Positions 11,706 through 12,515 of a stretch of DNA of 64,000 nucleotides are shown here, one piece after another. The position numbers and the translations under genes are program-made. The notes beneath the pieces are model-generated. The model was not told the origin of the DNA and ran no database searches. It saw only the letters and a program-made list of their open reading frames with translations. The stretch comes from a virus. The stretch is taken from IMG/VR virus record IMGVR_UViG_3300045988_122046. The stretch is one strand, 5' to 3'. The number at the start of each line of letters is the position of its first letter. The first letter of the stretch is position 1.

Positions 11706-12515
11706 ATGAAAGATATTAGCTATTATTGGGCAGATAAAGCTCAAAGAGCAGTTATTGCACAAGAGCATACTAAGCAAATGAATGAACAGTTTGCCAGTGG
11801 AATTGCGGAAAGTGTAATAAATAGTAAAATTTATAGTAAAAATTTTAAAGCGACAACGCCCGCAAGAAAATTAGAAGAAGCAGATATTGCTCTTGATGCT
11901 GTTGGAAGTGTTGAAGCTATTGTAGCTTGCGATTCTACAGATGGGAAAGTTGCAGTTCTTAATTTTGCTTCATATAAGAATCCTGGCGGAATGTTTGTTA
12001 GAGGTTCACGTGCTCAGGAAGAGTGTCTGTGCCATGAATCTTTCCTTTACAATGTATTAAGCCAAGTTCCAAACTATTATGATTGGAATGAAAAGCATAA
12101 GAATCGAGCTCTTTACGAGAATAGAGCGATTTATTCTCCAAGTATCAGATTTGAGCATTCTGGTATTGAAAAATACTGCGATGTAATTACTTGCGCCGCA
12201 CCTAATTTTACTGCCGCTGCAAGGTATTGCAATGTAGATAGAGAAGAAAATAAAAAAGTTCTTGAATCAAGAATTCGATTTGTTTTTGAAGTAGCAAAGC
12301 AGAATCAGGTTGATACTCTCATTTTAGGGGCTTTTGGATGTGGAGTGTTTGGACAGGATGCAGATGACGTTGCAGAAATTTTTATCAATCTGTTAGTTAC
12401 AGATTATGCAACTGAATTTAAGAAAGTAATTTTCGCAATCCCTATTATCAATGATGATTCTGTCAATTACAGTAAATTCCAAAATATGTTTGATGAGTTG
12501 TTAGAGGAGAATTAA
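11706..12515 (+). CDS. macrodomain protein of the bacterial PARG-like (DUF2263/TIGR02452) type
   Basis: Signature VLNFASYKNPGGMFVRGSRAQEECLCHESFLY matches PARG GGG-X6-8-QEE motif (here PGG-X8-QEE). Confidence 0.55.
   Translation: MKDISYYWADKAQRAVIAQEHTKQMNEQFASGIAESVINSKIYSKNFKATTPARKLEEADIALDAVGSVEAIVACDSTDGKVAVLNFASYKNPGGMFVRGSRAQEECLCHESFLYNVLSQVPNYYDWNEKHKNRALYENRAIYSPSIRFEHSGIEKYCDVITCAAPNFTAAARYCNVDREENKKVLESRIRFVFEVAKQNQVDTLILGAFGCGVFGQDADDVAEIFINLLVTDYATEFKKVIFAIPIINDDSVNYSKFQNMFDELLEEN

Follow-up and report, generated by a model that had tools for sequence, protein, structure and literature searches.

Poly(ADP-ribose) glycohydrolases (PARGs) are macrodomain enzymes that bind ADP-ribose (ADPr) and cleave the bond at its C1'' carbon; the glutamate of a QEE motif promotes this cleavage, which proceeds through an oxocarbenium-like intermediate that is attacked by water (PMC6445106, PMC8120803). 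Hydrolysis of poly(ADP-ribose) (PAR) is the founding activity of the family and is performed by the PARGs of both Thermomonospora curvata and Deinococcus radiodurans (PMC6445106), the latter organism containing endogenous PAR (PMC6445106, PMC8120803). Mono-ADPr linked to Glu or Ser residues of proteins is not cleaved by the D. radiodurans enzyme (PMC6445106). This report describes a predicted PARG of viral origin, encoded by the open reading frame (ORF) at 11706-12515 (+ strand) of IMG/VR record IMGVR_UViG_3300045988_122046, and examines the proposal that it removes ADPr from RNA. The stretch analyzed, 64,000 nucleotides in all, is referred to as the window.

Substrates other than PAR have been described for bacterial members of the family. 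The toxin RhsP2 produces 2'-O-ADP-ribosylated RNA, an adduct whose linkage is chemically the same as the ribose-ribose O-glycosidic bond within PAR; of a panel of macrodomain, ARH and NADAR enzymes, none but those of the PARG type cleaved it (PMC11833690). Streptomyces coelicolor SCO0909 and D. radiodurans DRB0099 reversed the 2'-OH ADP-ribosylation of RNA by RhsP2 and rescued cells (Lu et al., NAR 2025; PMC11833690). Bacterial PARGs also cleave ADPr from 5'- and 3'-phosphate ends of RNA and DNA, SCO0909 being the most active of the compared enzymes on 5'-phospho-ADPr RNA, whereas guanine-ADPr was reversed only by NADAR in the 2025 panel and reversal of thymine-ADPr is attributed to TARG1/DarG-like macrodomains (PMC11833690). 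DRB0099 lies in the operon DRB0100 (ligase)-DRB0099 (PARG)-DRB0098 (HD-Pnk) (PMC11833690). SCO0909 is the source of the activity proposed below and belongs to the same family as the window PARG, although the two were not aligned; it is a bacterial protein with a proposed role in immunity against competitor toxins, whereas the gene described here is carried by a virus.

The RNA-repair kits of jumbo phages comprise RNA ligases (Rnl), polynucleotide kinases (PNK), calcineurin-like and HD phosphoesterases, RlaP, Thg1, TROVE and KptA-2H-Macro (PMC7824862). The macro domains of large phages have already been surveyed computationally, and an association between these domains and phage RNA repair has been predicted (PMC9503650, PMC7824862). 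A phage-borne PARG is not new in kind, and the window adds one more member to an established enzyme family, in a setting that suggests a function but does not prove it. To our knowledge, an operon link of a phage PARG to Thg1, Rnl and PNK is not described in the literature searched.

The PARG gene and its product

The ORF extends from ATG to TAA exactly at 11706-12515, encodes 269 amino acids and is preceded by a ribosome-binding site (RBS; AAGAGG, 11690-11695). Its product matches the Pfam family PF10021 (PARG_cat_microb, formerly DUF2263) with 101 bits against a cut-off of 23.5 (E=1e-28) and the NCBIfam model TIGR02452 with 201 bits against a cut-off of 50 (E=2e-59), the latter alignment spanning residues 18-259 and model positions 11-265 of 266, that is, nearly end to end. 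The best solved structures by sequence are those of the PARGs from T. curvata (3SIG, E=5e-24) and D. radiodurans (5ZDA-G, E=4e-22). An AlphaFold model built from a 40-sequence alignment (pLDDT 91.9, pTM 0.90) retrieved the same proteins with Foldseek (3SIH from T. curvata, E=1.5e-20, TM 0.82, ~28-30% identity; the 5ZD* entries from D. radiodurans, TM 0.77-0.83), the next-best macrodomains reaching only TM ~0.5. In this model the macrodomain core and an N-terminal helical extension superpose on the solved bacterial PARGs. The hidden Markov model (HMM) scores, structure matches and predicted fold, together with the substitution pattern given below, identify the ORF as the gene of an intact, full-length bacterial-type PARG, and the assignment made in the original prediction, a DUF2263-type PARG-like macrodomain, is borne out by the HMM comparison that it had proposed.

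The motif on which that assignment had relied, PGG-X8-QEE followed by CLCHESFLY, is present as written. It consists of P93-G94-G95, the eight residues MFVRGSRA, Q104-E105-E106 and then C107-L-C-H-E-S-F-L-Y115, a match far beyond chance. The catalytic loop (P93 to E106, 11982..12023, + strand) aligns with the T. curvata PGGGFLSGAHAQEE loop, its QEE coincides with the QEE of 3SIG and 5ZD*, and the residue mutated in 3SIJ (E115A of the T. curvata PARG) corresponds to E106. Residues N86, F87, S89, G94, G95, F97, G100, A103, Q104 and E105 are invariant among 120 homologs and E106 is kept in 119 of them, in agreement with the earlier claim of a catalytic Glu-Glu pair. Met96 replaces the third Gly of the textbook GGG; as the majority state (91/120 close homologs) it is a variant typical of the Firmicutes/phage subfamily and not a lesion. 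The diphosphate-binding loop, G208-A-F-G-C-G-V-F-G-Q217 (12327..12356, + strand), has counterparts in the PARGs of T. curvata (GAWGCGVFGN) and D. radiodurans (GAWGCGVFRN), and L207-G-A-[FYW]-G-C-G-V-F-G-Q217 is nearly invariant across the family alignment. The T. curvata enzyme (3SIG/3SIH/3SIJ) thus shares with the window PARG the N-terminal helical extension, the macrodomain core, the GG-x-F...QEE loop and the GA[FW]GCGVFG loop, and differs in the third Gly (Met96 in the window) and in Arg268 (Asn254), as well as in not being phage-encoded.

Two other identities were considered and rejected. The generic Macro model PF01661 reaches 21 bits against a gathering score of 22, with only the C-terminal third of the model matched, and MacroD-type structures superpose with TM ~0.45-0.53 only; a MacroD or Appr-1''-p-processing macrodomain was discarded on these grounds, the window PARG belonging to the same superfamily as MacroD but to a different family. 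A DarG-type antitoxin macrodomain was discarded as well, since the best structural matches are PARGs and not TARG1 or DarG, and since neither PARG nor its small neighbor ORFs match PADLOC (E<=0.01), a collection that presumably includes DarG models. PHROGs, which have no corresponding family, gave no match to PARG, and Pfam scans of the neighborhood in the window and in a related viral locus (L001; compared loci are numbered in this way) revealed no DarT-like gene.

These data bear on the first target named in the original prediction, DarT-like DNA ADP-ribosylation; in such a role the enzyme would resemble an orphan antitoxin and remove ADPr from thymine or guanine of phage DNA. There are precedents, as phages reportedly oppose DarTG1 with NADAR-type enzymes and chimalliviruses encode a DarG2-like macrodomain (PMC11825919, PMC13309987), and the orphan hydrolases that counter DarTG share with the window PARG the logic of a stand-alone enzyme undoing host ADP-ribosylation. 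However, the known anti-DarTG enzymes are of the NADAR or DarG/TARG1 type and not of the PARG type, and they attack a base-ribose N-glycosidic bond on DNA that is chemically unlike the O-glycosidic and phosphate bonds cut by PARGs. Considering also the lack of a PADLOC match and the partial, sub-threshold Macro match, an anti-DarTG function is highly improbable.

The ribose-binding side of the active site is relevant to a second alternative. Arg268 forms a ribose cap in T. curvata PARG that enforces exo-only action; it corresponds to an invariant Asn254 in the window PARG, and its partner Asp261 to Ile247, a position that is not conserved and lies inside a lineage-specific insertion where the alignment is uncertain. 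The cap is not universal in the family, as the D. radiodurans PARG, an accepted and endo-capable member, has Thr267, and its absence does not argue against family membership. Judging from the aligned residues, the 2'-OH side of bound ADPr may be open, as in the D. radiodurans enzyme, a feature that is irrelevant for mono-ADPr on RNA. The resemblance of Asn254 to Thr267 would fit a true PAR or protein-ADPr glycohydrolase directed against a PARP-like or ADP-ribosyltransferase (ART) defense of the host, or resetting modifications made by a phage-encoded ART; PAR hydrolysis as the founding activity, the endogenous PAR of D. radiodurans and the ARTs commonly encoded by phages according to the survey literature point in the same direction. 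Nevertheless, no ART, PARP, KptA, sirtuin, TIR or 2H was found by Pfam in the window (most + strand ORFs of >= ~100 amino acids, one third of the genome), nor any ART, PARP or sirtuin within +/-10 kb of PARG in the related loci L001, L003 and L006, and the inactivity of D. radiodurans PARG on Glu- or Ser-linked mono-ADPr also counts against protein ADP-ribosylation, the second target named in the original prediction. This role seems quite unlikely. Of the function first proposed, reversal of host ADP-ribosylation stands as the most plausible class, while the targets named for it are not the best supported ones. The processing of NAD-derived signals, also suggested there, is conceivable.

The window derives from a phage, as originally proposed. 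All of its long ORFs lie on one strand, it contains six tRNA genes and its PHROG matches include topoisomerase II subunits, NAD-dependent DNA ligase, DnaB, RecJ, DNA polymerase, PhoH and endolysin. PARG copies with 93-98% identity occur on IMG/VR contigs, four of them of 188-196 kb, and a 98%-identical copy lies on contigs of this length; the window is part of an uncultured large gut phage of about 194 kb. A nucleotide search of a phage collection found no related cultured phage at the DNA level. The family is large: an exhaustive search at the 50% identity level gave 7697 cluster representatives at E<=1e-3 and 4045 at E<=1e-10, with relatives in at least 570 bacterial species genomes and on at least 214 IMG/VR viral contigs. 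Deposited phages with relatives comprise 15 Lak megaphage records, Bacillus phage G (gp114) and three uncultured phage records; gp114 and the Lak homologs belong to the same family (37-42% identity) and are unannotated or labeled hypothetical. Among the database homologs, P0121 (512 amino acids) is a tandem double-PARG protein. In phage G (L010, 58.4-75 kb), gp114 is located ~5 kb downstream of a cluster of nine tRNA genes, and a second macro gene, gp122 (Appr-1-p processing), lies 3.4 kb downstream of gp114, two macrodomain classes thus occurring in one region.

The closest homologs in species genomes belong to Lachnospiraceae (Acetatifactor, Blautia and others) at <=53% identity, a weak hint that the host or the donor is a gut clostridium. 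This relationship, along with the very frequent horizontal transfer of the family and its lack of a fixed bacterial context, would be expected of a passenger recently acquired from Lachnospiraceae-type hosts that has no specific role in infection. Such a history has very little probability, as PARG occupies the same position across phages down to 57% PARG identity, its promoter is conserved, its catalytic residues are all intact and relatives are found on at least 214 IMG/VR contigs. In addition, dN/dS values of 0.06-0.27 between the window PARG and its phage relatives indicate that the gene is under purifying selection.

Operon, promoter family and RNA-repair island

The unit upstream of PARG is closed by an intrinsic terminator (11499..11537, + strand) with a 13-bp stem, a 5-nt loop and a T8 run, which is kept in L001, L011, L012 and L017. 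A predicted promoter of the sigma-70/sigma-A type (11644..11680, + strand) precedes the gene and consists of a -35 element (TTGTTT, 11644-11649), a 17-nt spacer and a -10 element (TATAAT, 11667-11672) followed by a conserved ATATATAG; it is kept even in L016, where the upstream sequence and gene are unrelated. The terminator-to-promoter interval contains a GC-richer segment (11538-11620) that is kept in L001, L011, L012 and L017 and missing in L016, and that folds no better than shuffled sequences (z=+1.3). The leader (11450-11750) gave nothing in Rfam at E<=1, and the window as a whole gave only the six tRNAs at gathering thresholds.

This promoter belongs to a family. Its 29-nt core, TTATAAAAAATATnnTATAATATATATAG, has nine matches in the window at <=3 mismatches and none in shuffled sequences, and copies occur on the + strand at 4563, 7124 (looser), 11652, 16143, 17823, 24632, 25959, 27723, 29492 and 29584. 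The family form is ttgatttt-TTATAAAAAATATTATATAATATATATAG-aaagttaaggaaagg, that is, -35 TTGATT, a 17-nt spacer, -10 TATAAT and a conserved leader with RBS; most copies have TTGATT before the core and a conserved AAAGTTAAGGAAAGG leader after it. All copies are confined to the auxiliary/RNA-repair region at 4.5-29.6 kb, and none is found in the replication region at 32-64 kb. They precede PARG (11652), a nucleotidyltransferase (NTase)/Metallophos pair (16143), a block running from RNase T and cRec to RNA ligase (17823), a kinase/Metallophos_2 pair (29492 and 29584), a tRNA (7124) and several genes without known function. Because the consensus is that of a host sigma-70/sigma-A promoter, early expression of these genes is presumed, and the ~10 copies probably define an early regulon of the phage.

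Two small co-transcribed ORFs follow PARG on the + strand with adjacent or overlapping stop and start codons. The first (69 amino acids, 12517-12726) begins one base past the PARG stop and is Cys-rich, with five Cys residues (CxxC...CxC...C), and the second (12708-13013) encodes ~96-101 amino acids; neither matches Pfam or PADLOC. Both are kept only in the close clade (L001, L003, L011-L017). They were considered as conserved partners of PARG and rejected, as other lineages carry unrelated small ORFs at that place. The operon is then split in the window by a probable homing-endonuclease insertion (13194..14090, + strand), the product of which has Zn-finger repeats and an endonuclease-like C-terminus. 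This gene is absent from L001, its position is taken in L003 by a LAGLIDADG gene (11439-12464), and a paralog is found in the window at 21625-22350, both copies having repeated CxxC Zn-finger modules; the PARG-Thg1 interval is a hotspot for mobile endonucleases. The remainder of the operon (14094..15733, + strand) encodes a Thg1-like 3'-5' nucleotidyltransferase (14094-14996; Pfam E=4.5e-27), a 102-amino-acid ORF and an HD-domain protein (15305-15733; Pfam E=1e-4). In L001, which lacks the insertion, the order PARG-69aa-96aa-Thg1-102aa-HD runs with gaps of <=2 nt, and for this reason PARG is taken to be the first gene of an operon with the Thg1-like enzyme and the HD protein; the same order occurs in L003 and L006.

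The operon is embedded in an island of RNA-repair genes (~6.6-31 kb). Its upstream edge (6621..10021, + strand) contains genes for tRNA-Leu, Gly, Lys and Cys and, just after tRNA-Cys, a 507-amino-acid protein with DUF2828 and a vWA-containing DUF7788 (8498-10021) that we take to be TROVE/Ro-like; a Y-RNA-like partner for it was not detected by Rfam. Downstream, units behind the same type of promoter (16196..21418, + strand) encode a putative Pol-beta NTase (16196-17017, sub-threshold only, 21.5 bits against 26.9) and, by Pfam, Metallophos (17014-17802), RNase T (18079-18897), the cyclic-phosphate-processing receiver cRec directly after it (PF20274, 18897-19226, E=6e-13), DUF5662 (19616-20191) and an RNA ligase with OB domain (PF09414 + PF21189, 20240-21418). 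Farther along the + strand are a polynucleotide-kinase-like P-loop kinase of the AAA_33 family (29798-30382), which clusters with the AAA_33+HD proteins that adjoin PARG in other phages, and a Metallophos_2 phosphoesterase (30379-30930), both recognized by Pfam. YqeY and an SPFH/flotillin protein are also encoded in the island, which counts three calcineurin-like phosphoesterases in all. With an RNA ligase, a 5'-kinase, phosphoesterases and an HD protein encoded together, a healing-and-sealing set is present in the window, and the order PARG-small ORFs-Thg1-HD-NTase-Metallophos-RNase T-cRec-RNA ligase is kept in L001, L003 and L006, the PARGs of which are 84%, 66% and 57% identical to that of the window.

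This repertoire is the same as that of the described phage RNA-repair kits (T4 Pnkp + Rnl1; the jumbo-phage sets of Iyer et al., 2021, 2022). In the surveys, Macro stands downstream of KptA/2H and processes Appr>p or Appr-1''-p, whereas the window has a PARG-type domain that shares an operon with Thg1, and KptA/2H was not found. DRB0099 (5ZDA-5ZDG) resembles the window PARG in being a homolog, in having no Arg ribose cap and in its genomic link to a ligase and a kinase/phosphoesterase. The D. radiodurans operon is, in contrast, bacterial and DNA-damage-induced; in the window, the partners within the operon are the Thg1-like enzyme and the small HD protein, and the ligase (20.2 kb) and kinase (29.8 kb) share the island and promoter type with PARG but not the operon.

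According to the authors who defined cRec, the domain occurs only beside enzymes that process NAD+ or ADPr, which makes it the second component of the PARG island with a relation to ADPr. Since those authors also predicted that it processes cyclic-phosphate or cADPr molecules, its position 6.4 kb downstream of PARG can also be cited for an enzyme that degrades soluble ADPr derivatives, such as immune signals with a ribose-ribose O-glycosidic linkage (1''-2'/1''-3' gcADPR of Thoeris-like TIR systems), toxic metabolites or by-products of KptA-type repair (ADPr-1''-phosphate, Appr>p) or O-acetyl-ADPr. A role of this kind is favored for phage Macro domains in general by the survey papers (PMC9503650), and is in line with the NadE/nicotinamidase-like genes found near PARG in three phage groups, with the acidic character of the protein (pI 5.0, net charge -10), which suits a small-molecule enzyme, and with homolog P0220, in which PARG is joined to a C-terminal extension that looks SLOG/YpsA-like by eye and has only a weak match to 3IMK (E=0.037). 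On the other hand, in the substrates demonstrated for the family ADPr is bound to a polymer or a nucleic acid, the literature searched gave no link between PARG and gcADPR, and neither KptA nor 2H turned up as a partner in the window; moreover, operons of PARG, RNA ligase and PNK/HD (see below) fit such a role less naturally, except where a repair by-product is what the enzyme attacks. On balance, breakdown of soluble ADPr derivatives appears rather unlikely.

A proposed role in the removal of ADP-ribose from RNA

The preferred interpretation, to which a probability of roughly one half is assigned, is that the phage PARG would be an early-expressed healing enzyme that strips ADPr from RNA as a counter-defense. 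It is based on the cleavage of RNA-linked ADPr by members of the PARG family (reported in 2025) and on the RNA-repair context of the gene, including the gene order kept in its lineage and the promoter motif shared with the repair units. Starting from the identity of the enzyme and its gene linkage, we infer its substrate and biological trigger as follows. The phage would produce PARG early, along with the RNA-repair kit. Adducts, probably on tRNA or other structured RNA and located at the ribose 2'-OH or at 5'/3'-phosphate ends, would arise from an RNA-targeting ART of the host (a defense enzyme or toxin) or from KptA/Tpt1-like side reactions. PARG would bind the terminal ADPr, its QEE glutamates would cut at C1'' of the distal ribose and free ADPr would be released, so that the cleaned RNA could be used again in translation or be repaired by the kinase, ligase, Thg1 and NTase. 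A narrower version, in which PARG acts as the dedicated de-ADP-ribosylation step of a phage tRNA-repair pathway together with Thg1, NTase, kinase, phosphoesterase and ligase, is possible but on balance doubtful.

Gene neighborhoods in other phages provide part of the context. A total of 80 IMG/VR loci with +/-10 kb flanks were compared by clustering all of their ORFs, the loci forming 18 PARG groups at 75% identity. An AAA_33+HD kinase/phosphohydrolase, which has the architecture of D. radiodurans DRB0098, and Metallophos each occur in 8/18 groups, RNA ligase (two clusters) in about 7/18, DUF2828 in 6/18 and YqeY in 5/18. Thg1, the NTase cluster of the window and NAD ligase are each present in 4/18 groups, and NadE/nicotinamidase in 3/18, as is an RlaP NTase (PF10127), which was confirmed outside the lineage of the window only. 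An RNA ligase gene starts 26 nt past PARG in L019-L022 and overlaps an AAA_33+HD kinase gene, with NAD ligase after that; the trio of PARG, RNA ligase and PNK/HD in L019 matches the DRB0100-0098 operon of D. radiodurans. PARG is followed by Metallophos in L085, L175 and MT835651, L085 continuing with an NTase, and in L030 YqeY overlaps PARG, with RNase T and RNA ligase after one intervening gene.

Several observations weigh against this role in RNA healing. Not every phage PARG is linked to RNA repair: in the phage group with the most members (39 loci), PARG lies amid DNA methyltransferase genes, and among the deposited-phage contexts scanned (Lak phages, phage G, LR756502/511 and MT835651) those of the Lak phages, of phage G and of two huge uncultured phages gave no RNA-repair genes within 10 kb of PARG, the HMMs used for these megaphages having been built from gut-phage clusters and being of limited sensitivity; the exceptions are Metallophos beside PARG in MT835651 and NAD ligase with a weak YqeY in LR756502. 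The contexts of 80 bacterial species-genome homologs have no recurrent neighbor, and RNA-repair genes are present only in a phage-like contig (L098) of a metagenome-assembled genome (MAG) and, partly (NTase, Metallophos), in L100. Co-localization was counted in +/-10 kb flanks and without a genome-wide null; since many auxiliary early genes are grouped together in large phages, closeness and a common type of promoter may be a matter of timing and not of a pathway, and genes of other or no known function also lie behind this promoter. An RNA-targeting host ART was not identified and KptA/Tpt1 was not found in the 64-kb window. Finally, the acidity of the protein is no pointer to broad RNA binding, and the substrate specificity of a PARG is not readable from its sequence.

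If the narrower version above is right, gut Firmicutes that are hosts of phages of ~100-200 kb would defend themselves by ADP-ribosylating tRNA or structured RNA, a strategy so far undescribed for them, and phages would reverse such host-made adducts enzymatically, much as T4 counters anticodon nucleases. If PARG does heal RNA, phage RNA-repair kits would gain a third healing activity, adduct removal, beyond end phosphorylation/dephosphorylation and nucleotide rebuilding, and phage PARG genes would mark hosts that use RNA-ADP-ribosylating immunity, of which CmdTAC (mRNA) and inter-bacterial toxins, RhsP2 among them, are the only cases known to date. Otherwise, the window PARG would be one more stand-alone macrodomain among the many catalogued in large phages.

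Other features of the window and of related contigs

The bacterial contig L098 mentioned above (CANRPF010000006.1, 52,965 bp, from an 'uncultured Bacilli bacterium' MAG) encodes PARG together with PNK-HD, RNA ligase, Thg1, NTase, HD and three Metallophos proteins. Of its 21 ORFs, 15 match viral loci, and it is probably a phage contig mis-binned into the MAG.

The window has an unusually high load of homing endonucleases among its replication genes, with four GIY-YIG enzymes, some with NUMOD, and one HNH-like enzyme (39611-40354, 47168-48160, 50179-50847, 63057-63842 and 737-1465). The ORF at 5301-6419 encodes an AAA/nSTAND3-like ATPase with a weak PADLOC match to IetA (E=4e-5), which could be a phage-borne defense or exclusion gene; beyond it, an ORF of 108 amino acids and then one of 155-157 amino acids are found in the window and in L001/L002. 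A divergent adenylosuccinate-synthetase-like protein is encoded at 28078-29256 (PF00709, E=8e-19) and matches PHROG 1211 (E=2e-37), the label of which points to PurZ-type 2-aminoadenine synthesis; a comparison with the PDB gave no match at 1e-5. In another phage group (L070), this gene (cluster 296) recurs along with the two ORFs in front of it (clusters 294 and 295; 26005-27686).

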